DNA of 57,643 nucleotides from positions 1 through 57,643 of the forward strand of contig DATDXU010000018.1 in the NCBI GenBank assembly GCA_036517195.1, in the 5' to 3' direction. Position numbers and translations under genes: made by a program. The DNA is from Minisyncoccota bacterium (GTDB taxonomy: Bacteria; Patescibacteriota; Minisyncoccia; Phycocordibacterales; UBA2100). Shown piece after piece: positions 41,325-51,617 of this stretch. Under the pieces are notes generated by a model, which made no database searches, had not been told where the DNA came from, and saw only the letters and a list, made by a program, of their open reading frames with translations. Position 1 is the first letter of the stretch; every line of letters starts with the position of its first letter.

Positions 41325-42776
41325 TTACCATCCAAGGCGGAATCGCGCCTTGAAATGCCGAAGAGTCTTGTCTTTTCCATATGTTGGAATGGCTTTGGGA
41401 ATATGCCTACGCTCCTCGTATAGTCCTTTAATACAGTCGGCAACATAATATAAATCATCTCGCTCATATTTATTTCTTGGCACCGCCGCTCGCACGAAAT
41501 TTTTCTTTGGGAAAGTTTCTTTTTTCGTTTCTGCGTCATAGGTGCCGAATGCGAACGCGCCCAATTCACACAGTCGCACCCCCTTCAATAGCAGGAGAGC
41601 GGTTAATGAAATGCCTCCAAAATCTTCTCTGCGCATCGCTGTCCCTTTGAAAAAGCGGTCTATATCAATGTATACGGCGTGTCCACCAATTGGTTTCAAA
41701 ACAGGCACGCCGAGAGAGGAGAGATATGCGCCAAAATCTTGCACTAGTTTTATGCGCCCAGACAAATACTGTTCGGTGGTAACGTATTTCAAGCCCTCCA
41801 CGATTGACATGATGTCGCGTCCTGACATACCGCCATAGGTTGGATGCCCCTCTGTCAGTATTTGGTGGTCAGCGATGACTTCCAGCAAGTTCGGAATGAG
41901 TTTCAGAAGCGGGGCGTTTTTCTTTATCGCGAGAGCACCGCCCATATTGGCAAGTCCATCTTTTTTAAGCGAAATAGTGAACCCGTCACAGAGTGCGAAC
42001 ATTTCATGCACAATCGCAGGGATGGATTTTTTTGTGTACGGTTTTTCATGGTTGTGTATGAACCATGCATTTTCCGCAAAACGGCACGCATCAAAAAAGA
42101 GAGACGTTTTATATTGTTTGCACAGAGCGTGCGCGCCTTTGATGTTCTCCATAGACACGGGCAATCCTCCTCCTGTGTTGTTGGTGACAGTCAGGAGAAC
42201 GAGCGGAACTGATGCGGCGCGAGTTTTCAACAGTTGTTCAAGTTTTTTGAGATTTATGTTGCCTCCAAACAGCGTGTCGCTCGTGTCCTGCATATCCACT
42301 GCCTGTATGCCGTTTGCCTCCGCGTTGGCGCGCGTTGTGTCAAAAAACCCATTTGACGGCACAATTAAATTTTTGCCGAGGTGCGAATAGAGTGCGTGTT
42401 CCGCCGCGCGACCTTGGTGAAAGAAAAATATACCGTGAGTGTCGGACGAGATTCCGAATGTATTTTCAAATGCCTTAACGAGCTTGAAGTATCCCCGATT
42501 GCTTCCGTATGCTTCATCTCCTTGTATGAGGGCGGAAAGCTGGTCTAAGGTGAGTGCCGAGGTTCCTGAGTCAGATAATAAATCACCTCCCTCTAACATT
42601 TCAGAAGGGAACTGAAACACATTCCATCCGGCTTTTATCGCCGCTTTCCTCCTGTCTTCAGGAGAAAAGATATGGTGCGGACGCACAAATGCGTTTTCGT
42701 GCGGGCGGGGTTTGTGCGGAGTATTAAAATCAGTCAGCGCAAGCTCTCGTGGCGTCTCTGCTTTCTTTCGAGTCAT
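41325..42776 (-). CDS. beta-eliminating lyase (tryptophanase / tyrosine phenol-lyase family), PLP-dependent
   Basis: DLLSDSGTSA, GDEAYGSNRGY, HQGRAAEH, VPSNGFFDTTRANAE and SLKKDGLANMGGAL (PLP Lys) align with TnaA/TPL. The start is placed at MTRKK (42776). Confidence 0.8.
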   Translation of the reverse strand: MTRKKAETPRELALTDFNTPHKPRPHENAFVRPHHIFSPEDRRKAAIKAGWNVFQFPSEMLEGGDLLSDSGTSALTLDQLSALIQGDEAYGSNRGYFKLVKAFENTFGISSDTHGIFFFHQGRAAEHALYSHLGKNLIVPSNGFFDTTRANAEANGIQAVDMQDTSDTLFGGNINLKKLEQLLKTRAASVPLVLLTVTNNTGGGLPVSMENIKGAHALCKQYKTSLFFDACRFAENAWFIHNHEKPYTKKSIPAIVHEMFALCDGFTISLKKDGLANMGGALAIKKNAPLLKLIPNLLEVIADHQILTEGHPTYGGMSGRDIMSIVEGLKYVTTEQYLSGRIKLVQDFGAYLSSLGVPVLKPIGGHAVYIDIDRFFKGTAMRREDFGGISLTALLLLKGVRLCELGAFAFGTYDAETKKETFPKKNFVRAAVPRNKYERDDLYYVADCIKGLYEERRHIPKAIPTYGKDKTLRHFKARFRLGW

Positions 42777-42890
42777 TCCAAACCTTATATCACATACAGC
42801 ACGAAAGCACACCACAATTTGTGTCCCCGTGATTATAGGAGTAGGGTGAGCTAAGAAGTCACACTCTTCAGTATAAGAGAGGAGATACGC

Positions 42891-44075
42891 GTGTTCATTG
42901 ATATTTTGTATGAGGCAATCGCACAGGTATGGTTTGTACTCGTAAGGGGGTTTTTCGGAGGCAACATACTTCACTTCTTGATTCCATCGGTCTTTTTGGG
43001 TGCGCTTATTCTCTACGCCGCACCGAAAAGCCGAATGATGGGAGCGTTCTTTAAAAACGCGCGTTGGGCAGTGTGGGCGTGGGGTGGCGGGCTTACGGTT
43101 CTGTACCTTGTGTATGTACAGGTGCAGTTTTCCGTTGTCATCAATGACTGGTATGGCAACTTCTACAATTTGTTTCAAGAACCAAAGAAACATACCGTTC
43201 AGGAGTTTTGGGTCAGTTTGCGTATGTTTTTATGGATTACCATTCCGTGGGTTGTGGTATGGTCGCTCACGAAATATTTGACCAGCATTTATACACTGCG
43301 TTGGCGCGAAGCAATTACCGTTAATTATTTGCCACTCTGGTGCCCTGTTGGAGTAGATATTGAGGGCGCGAGTCAACGTATTCAGGAAGATACGCAAAAA
43401 TTTTCCGACATTCTTGAAACTCTCGGACTTGCATTCATGCGCACACTGATGACCCTCATCGTATTTTTACCTGTGCTTTGGCAGCTTTCCGAGAATATTG
43501 ATGTCCCTCTATTCATCCCCGGCACTCCAGAGATGCGCATAGTTAATGGGGTTGAGGTCACGATTAACCACATTCCCGGTGTTCTCGTGTGGCTTGCTGT
43601 CATTACGAGCGTTGGTGGAACGATACTATCTTTTCTGGTCGGTATTAAGCTTCCGGGTCTTGAGTACAATAATCAGAAAGTTGAGGCGGCGTTTCGCAAA
43701 CAGCTTGTTCTTGGGGAAGATAACAAGGTTACCTATGCCGTGTTGCCGGCACTTTTCGAACTATTCACCGGTATTCGGACAAACTATCAGTCGTTGTATC
43801 TTCACTACGGATATTTCAATGTGTGGATTGCTGCGTACGGTCAACTCATGAGCGTTGTCGCAGATGCGTTCGCGGGTCCGGGAATATTCACAGGAGCAAT
43901 CACGCTCGGTGTCCTTGTGCAGGTGAACAATGCGTTTGGAAAGGTACACTCCGGTTTTTCGTTTTTTGCAGAAAGCTGGACCACTGTTACAAAATTCTTG
44001 AGTGTTCTAAAGCGCTTGAATGAGTTTGAACGGAACCTTGGCACACAAACGAGTACGCCAACTACCGTACGATAA
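42891..44075 (+). CDS. sbmA: SbmA/BacA-family inner-membrane transporter
   Basis: NDWYGNFYNLFQ, IEGASQRIQEDTQKFSDILETLG, TLIVFLPVLWQLS, GIKLPGLEYNNQKVEAAFRKQLVLGED and SWTTVTKFLSVLKRLNEFE parallel E. coli SbmA. GTG start with a GAGGAG SD sequence. Confidence 0.85.
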   Translation: MFIDILYEAIAQVWFVLVRGFFGGNILHFLIPSVFLGALILYAAPKSRMMGAFFKNARWAVWAWGGGLTVLYLVYVQVQFSVVINDWYGNFYNLFQEPKKHTVQEFWVSLRMFLWITIPWVVVWSLTKYLTSIYTLRWREAITVNYLPLWCPVGVDIEGASQRIQEDTQKFSDILETLGLAFMRTLMTLIVFLPVLWQLSENIDVPLFIPGTPEMRIVNGVEVTINHIPGVLVWLAVITSVGGTILSFLVGIKLPGLEYNNQKVEAAFRKQLVLGEDNKVTYAVLPALFELFTGIRTNYQSLYLHYGYFNVWIAAYGQLMSVVADAFAGPGIFTGAITLGVLVQVNNAFGKVHSGFSFFAESWTTVTKFLSVLKRLNEFERNLGTQTSTPTTVR

Positions 44076-44078
44076 CGG

Positions 44079-44109
44079 GCCCTCCGCAAGATGCGGGGGG
44101 CTATTTTTT
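44079..44109 (+). terminator. rho-independent terminator
   Basis: GCCCTCCGCA/TGCGGGGGGC followed by TATTTTTT. Confidence 0.7.
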
Positions 44110-44149
44110 GTGTACACTACCTATTGGAAATACATCAAGGAGAAAAGAC

Positions 44150-44674
44150 ATGTTGAGTAAGGAAGATGCGGCGGGAATTGCTTCGCGCGCTCGAGTATTT
44201 CTTGCCATCAGAAAAACGTTGATGCTGGCAACTGCGGACATGGGGGATAGGGCAGGGAATCCGACCGCGAGCTATGCTCCATTTGTCCGAGAGGGTACAC
44301 ATTTTTATATCTATGTGAGCACACTCTCGGCACACACGCACGAACTTCGAAAAACGCGGAAAGCTGGAGTTCTGGTGATTGAGGACGAGGAAGACGCAAA
44401 GAATAACCTATTTGCCCGTACACGCATATCTTGTTTTTGTGTTGCCACTGTTGTTAAAAGAGAGGGCGAGGAATGGCAGAGAATCATGCGGGAATTCCAG
44501 ATGAAATTCGGAAAAGTATTTGACATGATTCTTCCTCTTCAAGATTTCATTCTGTTCTCTCTCACGCCATATGAAACCTTGTACATAGAGGGTTTTGGCC
44601 GCGCATATCAAATGGATGCTGATTTGAGCAATCCTGTGCACGTACGGAGGGCGGGACATACGGTCAAGAAATGA
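44150..44674 (+). CDS. pyridoxamine-5'-phosphate-oxidase-like split-barrel protein (HugZ/HutZ-like)
   Basis: AAGGAG is present upstream. LMLATADMGDRAGNPTASYAPFV and the overall size fit the PNPOx-like fold. The family assignment is tentative. Confidence 0.5.
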   Translation: MLSKEDAAGIASRARVFLAIRKTLMLATADMGDRAGNPTASYAPFVREGTHFYIYVSTLSAHTHELRKTRKAGVLVIEDEEDAKNNLFARTRISCFCVATVVKREGEEWQRIMREFQMKFGKVFDMILPLQDFILFSLTPYETLYIEGFGRAYQMDADLSNPVHVRRAGHTVKK

Positions 44675-44700: not shown

Positions 44701-44732
44701 AAGCCGCGGAAAAAACTGCGGCTTTTCTTTTT
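44701..44732 (+). terminator. rho-independent terminator
   Basis: AAGCCGC/GCGGCTT followed by TTCTTTTT. Confidence 0.65.
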
Positions 44733-44752
44733 CCGAGCGTCTAAGTGTACCA

Positions 44753-44781
44753 TTGACAATATATATACATTTTGATATGCT
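44753..44781 (+). promoter_or_regulatory. sigma70-type promoter of the NrtR-like gene
   Basis: TTGACA (44753-44758), a 17-nt spacer, then TATGCT (44776-44781). Confidence 0.55.
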
Positions 44782-44790
44782 GGAGACGTT

Positions 44791-45474
44791 ATGAGCAGGA
44801 ACGCGGGCCCAATCAAGTTTGCGGTGTTGGCTACAGACATTGCGCTATTTACATTCCACGAAGGGAAACTTTTGGTGCGCACGATTCCGGTCAACAGGCC
44901 GCCCTTTTTTGTAAAAGCCATAGGATTGCCCGGTGGACTGCTTGACCCTAAAGAAACCGCTGAACAAGCAGCGTTACGACTCGCTAGAGATAAAGCAGGC
45001 GTCACGCCATCAAAAATATATATGGAACAGTTGTATACATTCAGCGCGGTCAAACGGGATCCGCGCGGACGTGTCGTCGCTGTGGCGTATCTCGCACTTG
45101 TGCCATGGGAAAAACTTTCTCCATCGGAACAAAAGAGCACAGATATTGCGCGATGGGTCCTTGCGGACAGTAAAAAAAAATTCGCCTACGATCATGGACG
45201 GATTCTTACTATGGCGTTACAGAAAGTGCGCTCTCGCGCGGCGTATACCACACTCATATCAAAACTGATGCCACAAGAATTTACGTTAACAGAACTCGAA
45301 AATGTCTACAAACAAGTTCTTAATGAAAATTTGGATAAACGCAATTTTCGTAAAAAAATTCTTAAATTAAAAATAGTCACACCAGTTATTGGTAAACGAG
45401 TTCGGGGTCGTTTTCGCCCCGCGCAAGTGTATAGGTTCACGTCGAGTAGGGTAGGGGAGATAGAGGTGCTTTGA
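44791..45474 (+). CDS. nrtR: Nudix-related transcriptional regulator (NrtR-like)
   Basis: An N-terminal Nudix fold (GLPGGLLDPKETAEQAALRLARDKAG) plus a C-terminal winged helix (FTLTELENVYKQVLNENLDKRNFRKKI...FRPAQVYRF). Confidence 0.75.
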   Translation: MSRNAGPIKFAVLATDIALFTFHEGKLLVRTIPVNRPPFFVKAIGLPGGLLDPKETAEQAALRLARDKAGVTPSKIYMEQLYTFSAVKRDPRGRVVAVAYLALVPWEKLSPSEQKSTDIARWVLADSKKKFAYDHGRILTMALQKVRSRAAYTTLISKLMPQEFTLTELENVYKQVLNENLDKRNFRKKILKLKIVTPVIGKRVRGRFRPAQVYRFTSSRVGEIEVL

Positions 45475-45504
45475 ATGCAGGATTGTTTAAAGATTTTTTA
45501 TACA

Positions 45505-45530
45505 CCGCGCACAGTGCGTGGAGGATTTTT
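45505..45530 (+). terminator. hairpin plus T-run after the NrtR-like gene
   Basis: CCGCGCA-CAG-TGCGTGG followed by AGGATTTTT. Confidence 0.5.
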
Positions 45531-45606
45531 GTCGACAGTGTCCACGAATTGACAAGGTGTGTATAGTGTTGTGTATCGTTATCCACACTTGCATTCCAAA
45601 ATGAGT

Positions 45607-45625
45607 TAGTGTAATACTTACACTA
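45607..45625. promoter_or_regulatory. 19-bp palindrome TAGTGTAA-TAC-TTACACTA (candidate NrtR operator)
   Basis: Perfect 8-bp arms in the 252-nt leader of pncA, directly downstream of the regulator gene. Confidence 0.35.
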
Positions 45626-45726
45626 GGTATGGAAGATATGTTCTTTGACACCATATCTTAGGAAGCGGTTTCGGGTCTTACCGCTCTATAAAAAGACCTT
45701 CACGCCGTGCGAGAAAAGGAGAAACC

Positions 45727-46602
45727 ATGACTCGCAAGAATCTAAAAGTACACCTGCTCATTGTTGACCCCCAGAATGACTTCATGGGGAAAGACGATGG
45801 GTCGCCGCTAACGGAAAAGATGACTGACGGCACGGTGCTGTCCGCATCTCTGCCGGTTAAGGGCGGGATATCCGACATGCGTCGGGGTGCGGCACTGATC
45901 GACCGTATCGGGCGCAGGGTTGACGACATTCACGTGACGCTCGATTCGCATCACACGATGCACATTGCACATCCCGACATGTGGGTTGATGGGAACGGCA
46001 GAGCGCCGTCGCCATTCACCATGGTCAAGGCAGACGACGTGAAGAATGACATCTGGCGTCCGCGCAACCCTTCTCATCGGAAGCGCGTGATTGAATATCT
46101 GGCGAATCTCGAAGCGTCGGGCTCGTATCTTCATATGATATGGCCGCCTCATTGTCGTATCGGCACGTGGGGACACAACGTGGAAAGCACCATGGAAGCC
46201 GCGCTCACCAAATGGGAACGCACGGAAATGGGAGTCGTTGACTACATTACCAAGGGCTCCAGTGTATGGACCGAACATTTCGGCGGACTTAAGGCGCAGG
46301 TGTCGGATCCAGTTGACCCCTCAACCCAGCTCAACACGAATCTGATTAAAGTGTTGCAAGAAGCAGATATCGTCGGGTTCCTTGGAGAAGCGTCGAGCCA
46401 CTGTGTGCGGGAAACCGTGCTACAAGTGGCAGATAATATCGGAAGCGAGCATGTGAAAAAGCTCGTTCTCATTACCGACTGTATGTCTCCGGTGCCACAG
46501 GCGCCGGGTGGGCCTGATTTCCCAGCACTTGCTGCCCAGTTCTTGAAGGACATGGAAGCACGGGGCATGACGCTCTCAACGTCAAAAGAATTTCTTGCCT
46601 AA
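45727..46602 (+). CDS. pncA: nicotinamidase / isochorismatase-family cysteine hydrolase (long form, 291 aa)
   Basis: LLIVDPQNDF, TLDSHHTMHIAHP (metal-site-like D/H/H) and GEASSHCV (catalytic Cys context). Confidence 0.7.
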   Translation: MTRKNLKVHLLIVDPQNDFMGKDDGSPLTEKMTDGTVLSASLPVKGGISDMRRGAALIDRIGRRVDDIHVTLDSHHTMHIAHPDMWVDGNGRAPSPFTMVKADDVKNDIWRPRNPSHRKRVIEYLANLEASGSYLHMIWPPHCRIGTWGHNVESTMEAALTKWERTEMGVVDYITKGSSVWTEHFGGLKAQVSDPVDPSTQLNTNLIKVLQEADIVGFLGEASSHCVRETVLQVADNIGSEHVKKLVLITDCMSPVPQAPGGPDFPALAAQFLKDMEARGMTLSTSKEFLA

Positions 46603-46676
46603 TTAGGCGAGAGCATGCCGCGGGCAATCCCGCCCGCGGCATGTCCTTCCAACTTAAAGCAGAAAAGGATAAAGTC

Positions 46677-47426
46677 ATGGGACGTCTCACGGGCGACATG
46701 GACTCACACCTGATTGGTCGCGGCGGATTTGCCTTTACGGGCTTACGCTTCGACAAGTTGGGCGCCACAGAATACACATTGGTGACTGTTGCGGTTGATG
46801 TATCGGGTTCGGTGGAGTTGTTCGAAAAAGAACTGCTTTCCGCAATCAAACTCGCGGTTGACGCATGCAAGAAGTCGCCACGCTCGGATAACATTCTTGT
46901 TCGCGTACTGCTCTTCTCAACGAAGTTTCAGGGCGGAGTTTCTGAACTGCATGGGTTCAAGCCCCTCACGGATATTGATGTGGCGGCGTATCCGGCACTT
47001 CATCCTAGTGGCTCTACGCCACTGTGGGACGCGGTATATTCGTCGATTGGTGCGACAAACATCTACGCCGAATTACTTGCCAATCAAGATTATGGCGTGA
47101 ACGCAATCACGTTCGTCATCACCGATGGCGCCAACAATTCATCGACCGCGACGATGGCCATGATCAAGCATGAACTGAAAAAGGCGATATCGGGTGAAAA
47201 ACTCGAATCGATGATCAGCATCCTTGTTGGTATCAATTCTGCGGAATGTCGCACGTATCTTGAAGAGTTTCAAAAAGAGGCGGGCATGACGCATTACAAG
47301 GACATTGGCGATGCGACACCGCGGAATCTTGCGAAACTCGCGGCGTTCGTTTCTAGGTCCGTTTCCAGTCAGAGTCAAGCGCTCGGAACTGGTGTTCCAA
47401 GCAAACAGATCGCCGCTACGATCTGA
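46677..47426 (+). CDS. vWA-domain protein (TerY-like)
   Basis: MIDAS motif VAVDVSGS, then FST..SGSTPL, then VITDGANNSS. The start is placed after the GC-rich hairpin at 46613-46645, with AAGGAT upstream. Confidence 0.75.
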   Translation: MGRLTGDMDSHLIGRGGFAFTGLRFDKLGATEYTLVTVAVDVSGSVELFEKELLSAIKLAVDACKKSPRSDNILVRVLLFSTKFQGGVSELHGFKPLTDIDVAAYPALHPSGSTPLWDAVYSSIGATNIYAELLANQDYGVNAITFVITDGANNSSTATMAMIKHELKKAISGEKLESMISILVGINSAECRTYLEEFQKEAGMTHYKDIGDATPRNLAKLAAFVSRSVSSQSQALGTGVPSKQIAATI

Positions 47427-47492
47427 AAACAAAAGGGGAGAGGGCGACATCGTCTTCTCCCTATTTTTTTCACTCATACAAAGGAGAGGGTC

Positions 47493-48374
47493 ATGAAATT
47501 CCATAGCGACGACTACTTCCACATCGGACACGAACATGTGGTGGCAGGCAAACCTTGCCAAGATTATGCTCTCTCCGGACTTAGTGGGGGAGTGGCGTAC
47601 GCCACTGTTTCGGATGGATGTTCCACAGGTGGAAACACCGACGTGGGAGCACGACTTGTAGCATTGTCGGCTGCGAAAGCTATCCATACATTGGGAGACG
47701 CGGTCACAGGACCGAAACGGGACTATGCTGTAGAGGCAATTGTGTTCCATCAACAAACTATTCTAAACGAAGTTAAGACATTACTTTCTGTCACGCGAAA
47801 TGACATGTTGGCAACGTGCCTCTATGCCGTTGTATCAGAACGTGGTGGATTTGTTCATGTGCGCGGGGACGGTGTTGTCGCTTTCGTAAAGCGCAATGGA
47901 AGCATACTGCTTCATCGCTTTGATTGGGCGAACAATACTCCGTTCTATCCTGAATATCTGAACGATGACGTTTCCTCGTTTGTGGAAGCGCATGGTGGTG
48001 TAGAAGATGCGCACGCGCTTACGGAGGAAAAATGGCTCCTTACGAACAATGAATGCAAACATATCTCAACGACGACGCATTCCATTGCTCACGGAATGGG
48101 GGGTATGCTGATTGATATTAATCAAGAAGTAGTGAAAAACGAACTTGCGTATGTTGCTGTATTTACGGACGGCGTTGAGGCAGTTGATGGTATGGATTGG
48201 AAAGAAGCTGCCGCGCATCTGTTGGATTTCAAAAATACAGCAGGTGTATTCGCCAAACGGCGCATGATTCGTTTCGTGACAAAAGAAGCGACAGCGCGTG
48301 GCGTTGGTCCCTCGGATGACATCGCATACGCGGCCATTCGGGTGGAACACGAATCACAAGGAGGAGCACCATGA
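47493..48374 (+). CDS. PP2C-family protein phosphatase
   Basis: GKPCQDYA...ATVSDGCSTG...VFTDGV resembles PP2C_2-type phosphatases. AAAGGAGAGGG SD sequence. Confidence 0.7.
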   Translation: MKFHSDDYFHIGHEHVVAGKPCQDYALSGLSGGVAYATVSDGCSTGGNTDVGARLVALSAAKAIHTLGDAVTGPKRDYAVEAIVFHQQTILNEVKTLLSVTRNDMLATCLYAVVSERGGFVHVRGDGVVAFVKRNGSILLHRFDWANNTPFYPEYLNDDVSSFVEAHGGVEDAHALTEEKWLLTNNECKHISTTTHSIAHGMGGMLIDINQEVVKNELAYVAVFTDGVEAVDGMDWKEAAAHLLDFKNTAGVFAKRRMIRFVTKEATARGVGPSDDIAYAAIRVEHESQGGAP

Positions 48375-50113
48375 CCTCACGCACAGGCACCATTCATGTG
48401 GAGCTTGAGGGGCGTGGTCCCCTCACGCTTCGCGAGAGCGATTATGTTGCAAGTGGAGGAGAGGCGTCGGTATATAAAGCACACGGCACAAGCGTGAAGT
48501 TGTATACCGATTCTAAAAAAATGCGACGCGACGGAACGGCCGAAAAAATAAAGTTGCTGAAAGTGTTGCGTCATCCATTCATCATGGCGCCCGAGGGAAT
48601 TGTGCGAGATGCACAGGGGCATGAGATAGGAATCTACATGCCATACGCGGAAGGAGAACCACTCCCGCGAGTGTTCACCAACGCGTTTTGGCAGAGAGAA
48701 TCTTTCGACATCGCGCACGCGTCAACGCTTGTTGAACGCATGCGAGATACTGTTTCGTTTGCGCATAGCAATGGGGCAGTCATGGTTGACGGAAATGAAT
48801 TGAATTGGATTGCGCAAACGCGCGTGAAAAATGGCCCCGAGCCACGCACAATTGATGTGGATTCGTGGGCTATAGGGAAATTCGGAGCCACGGTTGTTAT
48901 GCCTTCCATTCGTGATTGGCATACCAAAGGGTTCACAAAAAATAGCGACTGGTTTACGTGGGGTGTTGTAACATTCCAACTATTCACGGGTATACATCCG
49001 TATCGGGGAACACGCGACGGGTATGAGAGAAATGAATTGGAGCGTCGGATGAAAGATAAAGTGTCCGTGTTCGCTCCTCGCGTACACCTGAACGCTTCGG
49101 TGCGTGATTTCAACACCATCCCGCCCGCGCTTAGGTCGTGGTACGAAGCGGTGTTTGAAAAGGGGGAGCGGACGATACCACCCTCGCCTTTTGACAAAGG
49201 TATCGCCGCAATTGCGCCGAGTGCCAGAACATACAGGGCGGTTGTAACTGCAACGGGCCAACTGGTGTTTGAGAAATTATTTGAAGTAACGGGGGACCCT
49301 GTACTTCGGGTATGGCCGTCTGGGGTGGTACTTCTTGCATCAGGAAAGATGTTTGACATTCGCTCCAAACGAATCATCAGTGTCGGTCAATCTCATGGTG
49401 CTGAAATTGTAAAAGTGCCCTGGGGCTGGCTCATCGGCGATTGGATGAATGGAAAACCCACATTTTCTTTCGTTGATGACCGCACTCTACAGCGCCAATC
49501 TCTTCCGTTCCAACTCGTAGGACACAGATTTATGCGTTTTGAAAATAGGATGTTCTTGGCAACTGACGACGCGTTGGTTGAACTTGAAGTGCTGTCCGTC
49601 GGACACGATCTTCTTTCAATCAAACAATCAACACCGATACTTGCTCCTCGCGCGACGACATGGTTTGATGGCGTCGGTGTCCAAAAAGCATTCGGCGCAA
49701 CGTTTATGATCCTGCCGTTTGACGACAATGCGTGCACGACAATTCGCGTCAAAGAGCTCGACGGGATTGAACTCGTGACAGCAAAAGCGGGCACTCGGTT
49801 TGTTGCTATGGTAGGCCTTAACTATCAGTCGGGTACCTATCAAAAATACGAACTCACGTTTACGGCGGATTACCGTTCGTACACCGTGTGGAGTGGACAC
49901 ACCGATAGCTCCGACTTGAATATCGCGATTCTGCCCAAGGGCGTGTGCGCGACCATCGTGAAAGATGGTGAGCTTTCCGTGTTCGTTCCTACAAACGGAC
50001 AGGTACATCGCGTCCTTGACCGACAGATTGCAACCGATATGCACCTTGGAAACTGGGAAGATTTGGTCGTGTATGTGTACGGTGGCGCACTCTGGAAATT
50101 GCAGATGAAATAG
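48371..50113 (+). CDS. Ser/Thr protein kinase-like protein with a C-terminal beta-rich domain of about 290 aa
   Basis: GGEASVYKA..VKLY, MVDGNELNW (catalytic-loop-like), IDVDSW (DFG-like), SDWFTWGVVTFQLFTGIHPY. Its ATG overlaps the PP2C stop (ATGA). Confidence 0.7.
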   Translation: MTSRTGTIHVELEGRGPLTLRESDYVASGGEASVYKAHGTSVKLYTDSKKMRRDGTAEKIKLLKVLRHPFIMAPEGIVRDAQGHEIGIYMPYAEGEPLPRVFTNAFWQRESFDIAHASTLVERMRDTVSFAHSNGAVMVDGNELNWIAQTRVKNGPEPRTIDVDSWAIGKFGATVVMPSIRDWHTKGFTKNSDWFTWGVVTFQLFTGIHPYRGTRDGYERNELERRMKDKVSVFAPRVHLNASVRDFNTIPPALRSWYEAVFEKGERTIPPSPFDKGIAAIAPSARTYRAVVTATGQLVFEKLFEVTGDPVLRVWPSGVVLLASGKMFDIRSKRIISVGQSHGAEIVKVPWGWLIGDWMNGKPTFSFVDDRTLQRQSLPFQLVGHRFMRFENRMFLATDDALVELEVLSVGHDLLSIKQSTPILAPRATTWFDGVGVQKAFGATFMILPFDDNACTTIRVKELDGIELVTAKAGTRFVAMVGLNYQSGTYQKYELTFTADYRSYTVWSGHTDSSDLNIAILPKGVCATIVKDGELSVFVPTNGQVHRVLDRQIATDMHLGNWEDLVVYVYGGALWKLQMK

Positions 50114-50267
50114 TCCTAAGATAGTGTTGGGGTTTGCGTAGGAACTGACGTTTCTTCACAAGCCCTCTTTGTAAGGCGCCTCGCTACACAAGGTGGGACG
50201 TCTTTAGAGAGAGTTCTTTCACAATCGTTCCGACTGTATTCGGAACATACAAAAGGAGTAGTGCGTC

Positions 50268-51566
50268 ATGAAAAATCAGGACTTTGTTGAAAGTCTGCGC
50301 GCGAGTGCAACTGAATTTACCCCACCTGTGCGCTCACTTATGGATGTGGATTTTTACAAATTCACCATGGGTCAGCTTATTTTAAGGCACCACGGGGGAA
50401 TGGAGGTCGTGTTCAAACTCATTGTGAGAGACCCGACTGCCTCCGTGGGGCACATTGTGTCTCAAACAGAGCTGCGGAAGTATCTTGATTATGCGATGGG
50501 TCTGCGTTTCAGAAAAACCGATCTCTATTATTTGCGCGGCGTAGACCTCTACGACAAATACATGTTCAAGGAAGAGTATCTTGATTTTCTGCGGGACTTC
50601 ACGTTACCCCCATACCAGCTCCGGCAGGTTGATGGGAACATTGAACTCACGTTCCGCGGACCGTGGGAAAGAGTGAGTATGTGGGAGACAATAGCGCTCG
50701 CTATCATTTCAGAGCTGTACTATCGCTCGGTGTTGGCAAAAATTCCAAAGCATGAGCTTGAGCTTGTGTATGTGCGGGCGAAAGATCGCATATATACGAA
50801 ACTGGAGACATTGCGACGTCATCCACACATTCGCTTCGCTGATTTCGGACAACGACGCCGACATAGTTTCCTTTGGCAAGAATGGGTCATTGGACTGTGT
50901 AGAGATGTTATGGAAGAGCAATTCACGGGAACTTCAAATGCGTGGATGGCGTTCCATCATGACCTTTCCCCAATTGGAACGAATGCACACGAGCTTCCTA
51001 TGGTTCTTGCGGCACTCGCCAATTCTGATGAGGAGAAGGTCGCATCTCAATACACTGTTCTCAAGGAGTGGGAAGAAATGTATGGGAAAGCGCTCCGTAT
51101 CATGCTTCCCGACACATTCTCGTCGGAGCAATTTTTCGCGAATGCACCGGAGTTTGTGGGCGAATGGCGAGGGATGCGGCAAGATTCAGGTGACCCGTTC
51201 ACTCGAGGACACCTGTACATCAACTGGCTTCGTAAACACGGTATTGACCCTCGTGAGAAGATGCTCGTTTTTTCTGACGGGCTTGATGTAGACCAGATGG
51301 TCCTGCTTCAAGAACACTTTGAGGGACAGATTAAAACGGCTTTCGGGTGGGGAACACTTCTCACCAACGATTTCCGCAACTGTCACACAGGCAACCAATA
51401 CTTGCGGCCGTTCTCTATGGTCTGCAAAGTTGTTGAAGCAAACGGTGTGCCGTGCGTGAAGTTGTCCGATAACATCAATAAGGCAACGGGACCCGTGGGA
51501 GAAGTGGAACGCTACAAAAAGATTTTTGGCGCTACTGAACGCACGAGTGAAGTTGTGCTCGTCTAG
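50268..51566 (+). CDS. pncB: nicotinate phosphoribosyltransferase
   Basis: MDVDFYKFTMGQ, FADFGQRRRHS, GTSNAW, RQDSGDP, FGWGT. Confidence 0.85.
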   Translation: MKNQDFVESLRASATEFTPPVRSLMDVDFYKFTMGQLILRHHGGMEVVFKLIVRDPTASVGHIVSQTELRKYLDYAMGLRFRKTDLYYLRGVDLYDKYMFKEEYLDFLRDFTLPPYQLRQVDGNIELTFRGPWERVSMWETIALAIISELYYRSVLAKIPKHELELVYVRAKDRIYTKLETLRRHPHIRFADFGQRRRHSFLWQEWVIGLCRDVMEEQFTGTSNAWMAFHHDLSPIGTNAHELPMVLAALANSDEEKVASQYTVLKEWEEMYGKALRIMLPDTFSSEQFFANAPEFVGEWRGMRQDSGDPFTRGHLYINWLRKHGIDPREKMLVFSDGLDVDQMVLLQEHFEGQIKTAFGWGTLLTNDFRNCHTGNQYLRPFSMVCKVVEANGVPCVKLSDNINKATGPVGEVERYKKIFGATERTSEVVLV

Positions 51567-51574
51567 TAGTATCT

Positions 51575-51617
51575 AAAAAAGGACCCCAGCGGTTATACCG
51601 CTGGGGGATTTTCTTTT
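51575..51617. terminator. bidirectional terminator between pncB and the mqo-like gene
   Basis: AAAAAAGGA-CCCCAGCGG-TTATA-CCGCTGGGG-GATTTTCTTTT. The mqo-like stop codon lies in the loop. Confidence 0.7.

Follow-up and report, generated by a model that had tools for sequence, protein, structure and literature searches.

A fixed four-gene cassette linking a nicotinamidase-like hydrolase to vWA, PP2C and kinase genes, a predicted target of NrtR in Patescibacteria

In this work we describe a fixed four-gene cassette, conserved across Patescibacteria, that encodes a pncA-like hydrolase, a vWA-fold protein, a PP2C-family phosphatase and a Ser/Thr kinase, and that lies in a 57,643-nucleotide stretch of DNA (the window) from a Minisyncoccota bacterium. 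On balance, we lean towards the reading that NrtR, a repressor responsive to ADP-ribose, has the cassette among its core targets throughout this group, and that the cassette would join ADP-ribose-induced nicotinamide deamidation to a phosphorylation layer whose mechanism we infer. The initial annotation had proposed that one locus couples a regulator of the NrtR type and genes of NAD salvage with a vWA/PP2C/kinase set; this was borne out, and a literature search found no published account of such coupling, as the annotation had suspected. Its reading of the locus stood in part: co-regulation gained support, while the insertion of a triad and the TerY-P label did not.

Results

Organization of the locus

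All six open reading frames were confirmed on the plus strand, in the order and at the positions first assigned to them. The locus comprises the following elements:

44743-44761, plus strand: weak NrtR-box-like sequence AAGTGTACCATTGACAATA over the -35 hexamer of the nrtR promoter, with 4 mismatches to the window operator
44753-44781, plus strand: nrtR promoter, TTGACA-17-TATGCT, the best sigma-70 match of the region (10/12)
44791-45474, plus strand: nrtR, regulator with a NUDIX effector domain and a winged-helix DNA-binding domain
45505-45521, plus strand: weak terminator-like hairpin 3' of nrtR, a 7-bp stem followed by AGGATTTTTG
45607-45625, plus strand: predicted NrtR operator TAGTGTAAtacTTACACTA, a perfect 8-3-8 palindrome beginning 120 bp 5' of the pncA-like ATG
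45727-46602, plus strand: pncA-like, cassette gene 1, divergent long-form (291 aa) nicotinamidase-like cysteine hydrolase
46614-46643, plus strand: GC-rich hairpin with a perfect 12-bp stem and no T-run, in the pncA-like/vWA spacer
46677-47426, plus strand: vWA-fold protein, cassette gene 2, 249 aa from ATG 46677
47435-47470, plus strand: strong intrinsic-terminator-like hairpin in the vWA/PP2C spacer, a 12-bp stem followed by ATTTTTTT, with a T7 run
47493-48374, plus strand: PP2C-family Ser/Thr phosphatase (PF13672 PP2C_2), cassette gene 3
48371-50113, plus strand: Hanks-type Ser/Thr kinase with a C-terminal beta-propeller, cassette gene 4
50268-51566, plus strand: pncB, nicotinate phosphoribosyltransferase (NAPRTase domains)
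51584-51606, both strands: bidirectional terminator ending the locus, a 10-bp stem, 8 of its pairs GC, with a T-run on each strand

Two of these elements, the T-run hairpin between vWA and PP2C and the operator at 45607-45625, had been overlooked in the first reading.

The cassette as a unit of two gene pairs

When genomes were anchored on the kinase, the pncA-like gene was immediately 5' of vWA in 60/60 of them. Independent anchoring of metagenome contigs on the pncA-like gene found vWA (67/67), PP2C (53/53) and the kinase (45/45) downstream. The pncA-like gene is thus a member of the unit, and not, as previously read, one half of a pncA-pncB pair split by a triad. The cassette was kept in many Patescibacteria lineages at 41-67% identity, and the catalytic and metal residues of its four proteins are at least 95% conserved among about 80 cellular and viral homologues.

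The natural sub-units are the pncA-like gene with vWA and PP2C with the kinase, rather than a triad. This two-pair structure follows from a hairpin 3' of vWA in 37 of 65 loci, from the pairings kept in viral loci and from a Variovorax megaplasmid carrying nrtR, the pncA-like gene and vWA without PP2C or kinase. Although gene order and spacing vary among viral loci, the pncA-like gene mostly remains with vWA and PP2C with the kinase; the pairs are not always adjacent, as in the 595-kb phage LR756511.1 the four genes lie about 2.5 kb apart. The hairpins found at the same position 3' of vWA all combine a stem with a T-run and have unrelated stem sequences; we predict that the one in the window is an internal attenuator separating the two pairs. 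The ATGA overlap of the kinase start with the PP2C stop, noted earlier, is present in the sequence. Likewise, the hairpin without a T-run reported between pncA and vWA is real; since terminator-like structures are rare in this spacer among relatives (3/62), it is probably lineage-specific and probably does not stop transcription.

The product of pncB matched NCBIfam PRK05321 (420.6 bits, cut-off 379) and TIGR01514 (281.8 bits, cut-off 269.55). This gene is a frequent neighbour of the cassette in variable position: it was located within 10 kb in 28 of 44 long loci, but in only 3 of 68 relatives does it come directly after the kinase in the same orientation. In the window, the 154-bp kinase/pncB spacer (50114-50267), one of the two leaders proposed earlier for a scan for NrtR motifs, showed no terminator-like or operator-like site, nor was an operator or a recognisable promoter found 5' of pncB; our guess is that pncB is co-transcribed with the cassette. 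The terminator that closes the locus is common to it and a convergent Mqo-like gene.

NrtR and its predicted operator

The nrtR product contains the Pfam domains NrtR_WHD (PF21906, 1e-21) and NUDIX (PF00293, 1.5e-8), and matched the NCBIfam family "ADPR responsive transcriptional repressor" at 8.9e-38, under the equivalog cut-off. The published NrtR motif, a 21-bp palindrome, has GT-N7-AC as its core, and the effector is ADP-ribose (PMC2330246). In the leader of the pncA-like gene, the scan for NrtR motifs yielded the operator at 45607-45625, of the form TAGTGTA-N5-TACACTA, which fits the published core in a matrix comparison and is the single site of the window (0.08 expected).

Of 61 genome loci, 32 have the same motif 5' of the cassette, as do 41 of 65 metagenome loci; only 50-63% of the cassette upstream regions carry a site at two mismatches or fewer. 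In 1.11 Mb of sequence 118 operator-like sites were found, versus 1 in shuffled DNA, and 41% of these were concentrated in the 1.9% of sequence immediately 5' of the cassette. The others preceded nrtR, pncB, pnuC, nadD(-like), nadE, prs, NAD kinase and ADP-ribosylglycohydrolase genes. The conservation of an NrtR-type operator 5' of the cassette in most relatives supports co-regulation, one of the two alternatives originally offered. In addition, nrtR or pncB was situated within 10 kb of the cassette in 32 of 44 long genome loci and 21 of 23 long metagenome loci. A box 27-51 bp 5' of orthologous nrtR genes in 15 of 29 loci makes the one at 44743-44761 a candidate autoregulation site.

The pncA-like hydrolase

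As in the canonical nicotinamidases PncA/Pnc1 (PDB 3pl1, 2h0r, 29iv), the pncA-like protein has an Asp-Lys-Cys catalytic triad, an Asp/His metal site and the motifs VDxQNDF, WPxHC and xHCV. The triad (D14/K176/C226) and the metal site (D73/H75/H82/H142) are at least 95% conserved in 83 homologues, and a family profile retrieved only nicotinamidases from the PDB (2.3e-5); the names given in source records are "nicotinamidase/pyrazinamidase" and "cysteine hydrolase". Unlike the canonical enzymes, of 180-216 aa, it runs to about 290 aa, contains two insertions as well as a C-terminal extension that is conserved, falls below the Pfam Isochorismatase cut-off (E=0.028) and is always encoded with a vWA partner. 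Judged by its sequence, this is a distinct long-form family and not a canonical PncA. Residue conservation leads us to assume that its substrate is nicotinamide; as the enzyme exceeds characterised nicotinamidases by about 100 residues in length and scores below the Pfam cut-off, it may act on something bigger. In two loci, L022 and L032, a second pncA-like paralogue is present, in L032 beside pncB, so the cassette copy may not be the housekeeping enzyme.

The vWA, PP2C and kinase proteins

The three domain labels of the initial annotation fared unequally in profile searches. That of PP2C was supported (PP2C_2, 1.3e-16), and its metal-binding residues D24, D41-G42, D126-G127, D226-G227 and D275-D276 are at least 95% conserved in 82 homologues. 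The kinase scored 31.5 bits, marginally below the Pfam Pkinase cut-off of 31.7; its predicted fold and conserved K43, D140, N145 and D162/D164 confirm the assignment. The kinase domain covers about residues 1-270 and a beta-propeller about residues 290-580; the C-terminal part was modelled as all-beta (pLDDT 80-90), and Foldseek matched the LRRK2 kinase-WD40 structure, bacterial Hanks kinases and 7/8-bladed propellers.

The vWA protein, alone or as a family, had no sequence match in Pfam, NCBIfam, PADLOC or the PDB, and is recognisable by its predicted fold only: the best 50 Foldseek matches of its AlphaFold model (pTM 0.78) were all vWA/integrin-I domains (top E 5e-9). The probable start is ATG 46677 rather than position 46641 of the mechanical ORF (RBS AAAGGA; homologues of 248-252 aa). 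A MIDAS-like D..S..T..D set (D41, S45, T114, D150) is conserved, as is an invariant, disordered, Ser/Thr-rich C-terminal tail, SxSSQSQALGTGxPS. Variovorax also keeps this tail although it has no gene for a cognate kinase nearby, which weakens the idea that the tail is a kinase acceptor.

Occurrence outside Patescibacteria

All four genes are present in the curated huge phages LR745208.1 and LR756511.1 (485 and 595 kb) and in 18 of 21 IMG/VR loci, a sample in which some large contigs may not be viral; several of these loci carry pncB or a full nrtR. A Bradyrhizobium copy, with the pncA-like gene beside the other three and neither pncB nor nrtR nearby, is in a prophage (9/10 flanking proteins match PHROGs). 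The NrtR link recurs beyond Patescibacteria, as a divergent nrtR adjoins cassette genes in Rhodoferax and Variovorax, and in two viral IMG/VR contigs the kinase gene and a full nrtR share 4 nt at the kinase stop codon.

Discussion

Known NrtR regulons include nrtR-pncA-pncB operons in Lactobacillus, Clostridium and Pseudomonas (Rodionov et al. 2008, PMC2330246). The one predicted here shares with them a Nudix and winged-helix regulator, a GT-N7-AC palindrome, likely autoregulation and pncA-type, pncB, nadD, nadE, prs and pnuC targets. It differs in belonging to a previously unreported lineage with its own motif, TAGTGTA-N5-TACACTA, and in its main target, which instead of a plain pncA is a pncA-like gene joined to those for vWA, PP2C and kinase; the published lists of NrtR targets contain no genes for protein phosphorylation (PMC2330246).

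Taking the operator together with the published behaviour of NrtR, cleavage of NAD+ would raise ADP-ribose, NrtR would leave 45607-45625 and transcription of the cassette would increase. Nicotinamide, the other cleavage product, could be converted to nicotinate by the hydrolase, as its conserved catalytic and metal residues suggest, and PncB, whose gene is probably transcribed in the window by read-through from the cassette, would feed nicotinate into the Preiss-Handler route to NAD+. The vWA protein may be the fixed partner of the hydrolase, since their adjacency is invariant even in the lineage lacking the kinase pair; it might serve as a regulatory or maturation subunit, probably binding via its metal-ion-dependent adhesion site. 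The pairing of the kinase and PP2C genes, their translational coupling and the hairpin conserved 3' of vWA suggest that these two proteins act as a reversible phosphorylation switch on the hydrolase/vWA pair, with the propeller as input domain, and that they would be made at a lower level owing to the attenuator. Phage and prophage copies, often with their own nrtR or pncB, might rebuild or manage NAD+ during infection.

The presence of the cassette in phages and a prophage is equally well compatible with a role in conflict. It might have been a phage-borne, ADP-ribose-inducible counter-defence, later fixed in Patescibacteria, which would remove nicotinamide and return it to NAD+ synthesis once host NADase defences act, a regulated Preiss-Handler addition to known phage NAD+ reconstitution. 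We regard this as unlikely. In its favour, besides the complete phage, IMG/VR and Bradyrhizobium sets, some with pncB or a kinase-coupled nrtR, a NUDIX gene is next downstream of a phage copy, and such reconstitution is established for NARP1 (Adps + Namat), NARP2 (Nampt + Nmnat) and NARP3 (PnuC + NadR-like) (PMC13464706; 10.1101/2024.02.11.579819). Like these, the phage cassette co-occurs with NAD genes (pncB, NUDIX, nrtR) able to use NAD+ cleavage products; unlike them, it would take the deamidated route (nicotinamidase with or without PncB) and adds an ADP-ribose-sensing repressor and a kinase/phosphatase/vWA layer. However, the Patescibacteria cassette looks like core metabolism because it shares a lineage-specific chromosomal NrtR regulon with housekeeping NAD genes, the Patescibacteria operator is absent from every viral locus examined, some large IMG/VR contigs may be non-viral, and the role of vWA, PP2C and kinase is no better explained.

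More doubtful still is an anti-phage defence of the TerY-P kind, with vWA/PP2C/kinase as sensor-switch and the hydrolase as effector, either removing nicotinamide to block phage NAD+ rebuilding or relieving product inhibition of an NADase. The TerY-P triad (Anantharaman, Iyer & Aravind 2012), whose stand-alone versions have reported anti-phage activity (Gao et al. 2020; summarised in PMC11090510), also encodes in a row a vWA protein carrying a MIDAS-like motif, a PP2C and a Hanks-type kinase, which implies a reversible switch and a metal-binding adaptor. Moreover, the kinase is weakly similar to defence-associated kinases (mad6, 9.2e-6), defence cassettes are often carried by prophages, and GmrSD_N genes adjoin the cassette in one phage. 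Nevertheless, PADLOC models did not match vWA, PP2C or hydrolase even at E<=10, tblastn against annotated TerY from 72,556 plasmids gave no match, and the vWA protein lacks detectable sequence similarity to TerY or to Pfam vWA families. The kinase ends in a propeller instead of the zinc ribbon or OB fold that characterises TerY-P kinases (PMC11090510). The TerY-P label of the initial annotation is not supported. TerY-P is a triad, whereas the cassette has four genes, begins with a hydrolase, has hydrolase and vWA as its tightest pair (also found without kinase and phosphatase), and belongs to an NAD regulon with nadD, nadE, pnuC and prs instead of adjoining restriction or ter genes. Its retention in many lineages is unlike the patchy spread of defence genes, and with no PADLOC match to three of its proteins it is not a standard defence system.

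The chance landing of a mobile vWA/PP2C/kinase triad between an ordinary pncA and pncB, as this one window might suggest, is hardly credible and is refuted by synteny, as the long-form pncA-like gene stays with the other three, Bradyrhizobium and phages included, around which pncB and nrtR change places.

In summary, our preferred reading is that of an NrtR-controlled nicotinamide-deamidation cassette with its own phosphorylation layer; in a link for which we found no description in the literature, this cassette would tie NAD salvage to protein phosphorylation in Patescibacteria.

Gene content of the locus

Six open reading frames on one strand make up the locus, at exactly the positions given in the initial annotation. 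Four of them, from the pncA-like hydrolase gene to the kinase gene, are referred to here as the cassette:

44791-45474, + strand, nrtR, upstream of the cassette
45607-45625, predicted NrtR operator
45727-50113, + strand, cassette: pncA-like hydrolase, vWA, PP2C and kinase-propeller genes
46614-46643, 12-bp-stem hairpin between the pncA-like and vWA genes
47435-47462, terminator-like hairpin between the vWA and PP2C genes
50268-51566, + strand, pncB, downstream of the cassette

The nrtR product carries an N-terminal Nudix-like domain and a C-terminal winged-helix DNA-binding domain (Pfam NUDIX, 1.5e-8; NrtR_WHD, 1e-21), and PncB shows NAPRTase domains, scoring 420.6 bits with NCBIfam PRK05321 (cut-off 379) and 281.8 bits with TIGR01514 (cut-off 269.55). 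Active sites are conserved in all four cassette proteins. The three domain assignments made previously for the vWA, PP2C and kinase proteins fared differently. The PP2C protein was confirmed by Pfam (PP2C_2, 1.3e-16) and retains the metal-binding aspartates, while the kinase was borderline by sequence (Pkinase, 31.5 bits against a cut-off of 31.7). Its structural model shows a Hanks-type domain and, after it, an all-beta domain predicted with confidence. Foldseek matches were to the LRRK2 kinase-WD40 and to 7/8-bladed propellers; the C-terminal 290 residues are a beta-propeller in this model. The vWA protein had no match in Pfam, NCBIfam, PADLOC (E up to 10) or, by phmmer, the PDB, and neither a family profile searched against the PDB nor a Pfam search of 18 family members gave one. 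As sequence searches returned nothing, we assigned it by its predicted fold only: the AlphaFold model (pTM 0.78) had vWA/integrin-I domains as all of its 50 best Foldseek matches. A MIDAS-like Asp..Ser..Thr..Asp set is conserved in the family.

The hairpin lacking a T-run that had been described between the first two cassette genes is present, and the vWA gene most likely starts at position 46677 rather than at 46641. The ATGA overlap of the PP2C and kinase genes, on which their proposed translational coupling was based, was also read in the sequence.

An SbmA/BacA-family transporter and a HutZ/HugZ-like (PNPOx-fold) haem-utilisation protein are encoded immediately upstream of nrtR (42891-44674), each gene being closed by a strong terminator (44078-44102 and 44701-44724, respectively). 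A 622-aa beta-eliminating-lyase ORF (41325-43193, - strand) overlaps the SbmA/BacA-like gene (42891-44075, + strand) by about 300 bp; its Pfam match begins only at residue 204, and its true start probably lies well downstream of the mechanical ORF start.

The hydrolase resembles nicotinamidases

The pncA-like protein (291 aa) gave a sub-threshold match to the Pfam Isochorismatase family (E=0.028, 15 bits against a cut-off of 27), and one of its homologues has a precomputed PF00857 match. A profile built from 20 sequences of the hydrolase family matched only nicotinamidases in the PDB (best 2.3e-5). The catalytic triad Asp14-Lys176-Cys226 and the metal site Asp73/His75/His82/His142 are at least 95% conserved and align to the motifs of PDB entries 2h0r and 3pl1. 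From these alignments we infer that nicotinamide would be the substrate.

A second, more divergent pncA-like paralogue was found in two genome loci, at L032:6355-7206 and L022:12889-13752 (40% and 27% identity). In the former it directly follows pncB; in the latter it follows an nrtR gene that is itself located downstream of the kinase. These cases hint that a 'plain' copy can occur alongside the one in the cassette.

A conserved unit of four genes

The vWA and kinase proteins have abundant homologues, whose existing source names are almost all Patescibacteria/Parcubacteria. We retrieved 68 kinase-anchored genome loci. In all 60 that extended far enough the pncA-like gene lies directly upstream of the vWA gene on the same strand, and these include Bradyrhizobium isolates, a Rhodoferax and a cyanobacterial bin. 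A reciprocal metagenome set anchored on the pncA-like gene, comprising the best 80 of 360 contigs, gave the same picture, with the vWA gene present in 67/67, PP2C in 53/53 and the kinase in 45/45. The unit thus has four genes and not three.

The NAD genes outside this unit are close to it but not fixed. Either pncB or nrtR, or both, occur within 10 kb in 32 of the 44 long genome loci and in 21 of the 23 long metagenome loci, a frequency well over the few percent that chance would give in genomes of about 1 Mb (one source chromosome of the set measures 0.99 Mb). Their position and strand vary, and no more than 3/68 loci have pncB as the next gene after the kinase on the same strand. The initial annotation had considered, as one of two alternatives, that a mobile triad was inserted into the salvage operon, splitting pncA from pncB. 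Since the pncA-like gene is invariant and the placement of pncB and nrtR is variable, that insertion scenario is refuted.

Several cassette contigs (L013-L068, genome loci) bear MAG labels such as Micavibrio, Rickettsiales, Methylococcaceae, Bdellovibrionales and Thermosynechococcus, some of them with the Patescibacteria operator described below. Some of these labels or bins may be wrong, a Patescibacteria-type cassette having been filed under Micavibrio, Thermosynechococcus or the like.

A predicted NrtR operator links the cassette to NAD genes

The window contains one perfect palindrome of this type, TAGTGTAAtacTTACACTA, which is unique and starts 120 bp before the pncA-like ATG. Allowing up to 2 mismatches, 118 such sites were found in 1.11 Mb of related loci, against 1 in shuffled sequence (examples are L012:11864, L009:4068, L032:4826, L045:19066 and L055:11750). 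The 350 bp ahead of the cassette hold 48 of the 118 (in 32/61 regions); 16 stand before nrtR and 10 before pncB, and the remainder are upstream of genes encoding PnuC, a NadD-like nucleotidyltransferase, a Nudix-containing NadM-like protein, NadE, Prs, NAD kinase and ADP-ribosylglycohydrolase. The independent metagenome set had a site in 41 of 65 cassette upstream regions. A matrix derived from 196 unique sites reads W-TAGTGTA-W5-TACACTA-W, with TGT/ACA invariant. Described NrtR sites are 21-bp palindromes with a GT-N7-AC core, from which the regulator is released by ADP-ribose (PMC2330246). The Patescibacteria motif fits this published palindrome, core included, and like the sites of the known regulons it stands upstream of NAD genes (PMC2330246). 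Together, the TAGTGTA-N5-TACACTA boxes, seen across loci L001-L068 and L094-L173, define a Patescibacteria NrtR regulon, consisting of a predicted operator with the cassette and NAD genes as its members. Our literature search found no paper on NrtR in Patescibacteria and no published description of such a regulon. No kinase, phosphatase or vWA gene is among the NrtR targets of Rodionov 2008 (PMC2330246), and nrtX-nrtY, the unexplained targets of that study, were ruled out as a counterpart of the cassette, being a different two-gene pair.

The suggestion that NAD genes and phosphorylation genes are co-regulated is therefore borne out by a shared predicted operator. Of the two leaders suggested for an NrtR motif scan, the one before the cassette holds a motif, and the kinase-pncB spacer (50114-50267) does not: it has no recognisable NrtR box, promoter or terminator, only an unrelated perfect 7-6-7 inverted repeat, GTTCCGA-ctgtat-TCGGAAC (50227-50246), whose end is 21 bp from the start codon of pncB. 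The window's nrtR promoter has a weaker box, lying over its -35 hexamer.

Between the NrtR box and the start of the pncA-like gene there is another perfect inverted repeat, AAGATATG-N11-CATATCTT (45633-45659), which is unrelated to the NrtR motif. At some loci the operator-containing intergenic region is shared with a divergent gene for a small predicted membrane protein (103-137 aa) without a Pfam match:

L045:6615-6926, L056:6324-6680 and L057:6674-7087, small membrane protein, in genome loci labelled Nomurabacteria, Paceibacteria and Saccharibacteria

Phage and plasmid copies

The Bradyrhizobium copy lies in a same-strand block, and 9/10 of its flanking proteins match phage families, among them exonuclease VIII, a DNA methyltransferase, a polymerase exonuclease subunit and a terminase-like protein. 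Two curated huge phages, LR745208.1 (485 kb) and LR756511.1 (595 kb), encode full-length kinase relatives (28-30% identity) together with the other three genes; in LR745208.1 a NUDIX gene follows the cassette. All four genes were present in 18 of 21 IMG/VR loci, several with pncB, and two IMG/VR loci have a complete nrtR (NUDIX + NrtR_WHD) in a 4-nt overlap with the kinase stop codon. The Patescibacteria operator was absent from every viral locus, which argues that these are not mis-binned Patescibacteria, even though some of the large IMG/VR contigs may not be viral. If the viral elements are regulated by their own NrtR, they would use another motif.

The hydrolase and vWA genes form the core

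A strong terminator-like hairpin with a T7 run separates the vWA and PP2C genes in the window. A hairpin plus T-run occupies this spacer in 37/65 loci, with unrelated stem sequences, as compared with 3/62 for the pncA-like/vWA spacer. Because too little room is left after the hairpin for a promoter, we read it as a putative attenuator that would lower PP2C and kinase expression. In viral loci the pncA-like/vWA and PP2C/kinase genes usually stay as adjacent pairs while order and spacing change; in the 595-kb phage the four are scattered across 12.5 kb of one strand. On Variovorax megaplasmids the pncA-like/vWA pair lies beside a divergent nrtR and genes for a NUDIX hydrolase, a macro-domain protein, a nucleoside-2-deoxyribosyltransferase-like protein and an NAD kinase, with no PP2C or kinase gene within 9 kb. 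An unannotated ORF after the Variovorax vWA gene is related neither to the ORF that follows vWA in the huge phage nor to PP2C. The conserved hairpin split, together with the pairing in viral loci and in Variovorax, identifies the hydrolase/vWA pair as the core and the kinase/phosphatase pair as an added layer.

Genes with a PF15891 (nucleoside-2-deoxyribosyltransferase-like) domain were seen close to cassette genes in the 485-kb phage (L093:19723-20940) and in Variovorax (L175:10406-10894), which suggests a wider ADP-ribose/nucleotide-processing neighbourhood.

The C-terminal tail of the vWA protein is Ser/Thr-rich, disordered and invariant, and would be the obvious candidate phosphoacceptor. 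Yet loci with no kinase close by conserve it as well, which weakens the case for a plain role as phosphoacceptor of the adjacent kinase; the tail may instead serve for docking.

Relation to known systems

The vWA and PP2C proteins matched no PADLOC model even at E<=10, in a database that presumably includes TerY-P models, and a tblastn search of 72,556 plasmids with the vWA protein returned the Variovorax copies only, with no match to an annotated TerY. By sequence, a TerY-like identity was not supported: the protein has the vWA fold but no match to TerY/vWA families. TerY-P systems combine a TerY-like vWA protein with a PP2C and with a kinase that bears a fused zinc ribbon or, in anti-phage versions, an OB fold (PMC11090510). 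The cassette shares with them a PP2C gene next to a vWA gene, although here a terminator-like hairpin stands between the two; its kinase ends in a predicted beta-propeller instead of a zinc ribbon or OB fold, and it includes a hydrolase. For these reasons (no PADLOC or TerY match, the propeller and the hydrolase) the 'TerY-P-type' classification did not hold: by analogy, the cassette may work like a TerY-P-style switch, but it is not a member of that family.

NARP1-3 are defined by the pairs Adps + Namat, Nampt + Nmnat, or PnuC + NadR-like (PMC13464706). None of these enzymes occurs in the cassette, which has instead a nicotinamidase-like hydrolase with or without PncB. A PncA-like gene has been noted in megaphage G, without an assigned role. 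The four-gene combination was not described in the literature searched, which did not extend to the original 2012 TerY-P paper; within that literature, the earlier statement that no coupling of NAD recycling, NrtR and such a triad had been described holds as well.

Proposed function and significance

The genome organisation and regulation of the cassette are well supported; what stands of the first description is the observation itself, the coupling and the co-regulation, and what falls is the TerY-P membership and the insertion. As a mechanism, we propose that ADP-ribose would induce the cassette through NrtR, that the vWA protein would be a MIDAS-mediated partner of the hydrolase, and that the kinase and PP2C would act on the hydrolase/vWA pair, with the propeller as a possible input domain. 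A tentative reading, which we hold to be possible but rather unlikely, is that a nicotinamidase obligately partnered by vWA, gated by the propeller kinase and PP2C and induced by ADP-ribose through NrtR, is an unrecognised, regulated entry point of NAD+ salvage in Patescibacteria and huge phages, serving phages in counter-defence and episymbionts as a main control. If so, phages would have a fourth, inducible NAD+-restoring counter-defence route, and in reduced-genome episymbionts the cassette would be the main control point of the NAD+ economy. The salvage-control and phage-conflict readings are not mutually exclusive.

To our knowledge, current accounts of NAD homeostasis in bacteria deal almost entirely with transcriptional control. 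If the proposal is true, a eukaryote-like Ser/Thr phosphorylation switch would be hard-wired to the first step of nicotinamide salvage, under a sensor of NAD+ breakdown, giving the vWA/PP2C/kinase arrangement a concrete biochemical context of one enzyme and one small-molecule pathway. Curated huge phages and a prophage carry the four-gene cassette, which makes it a new candidate player in the phage-bacteria arms race over NAD+. Furthermore, our results define an NrtR operator and regulon, both predicted, for the Patescibacteria, a large group that relies on salvage and is poorly understood.
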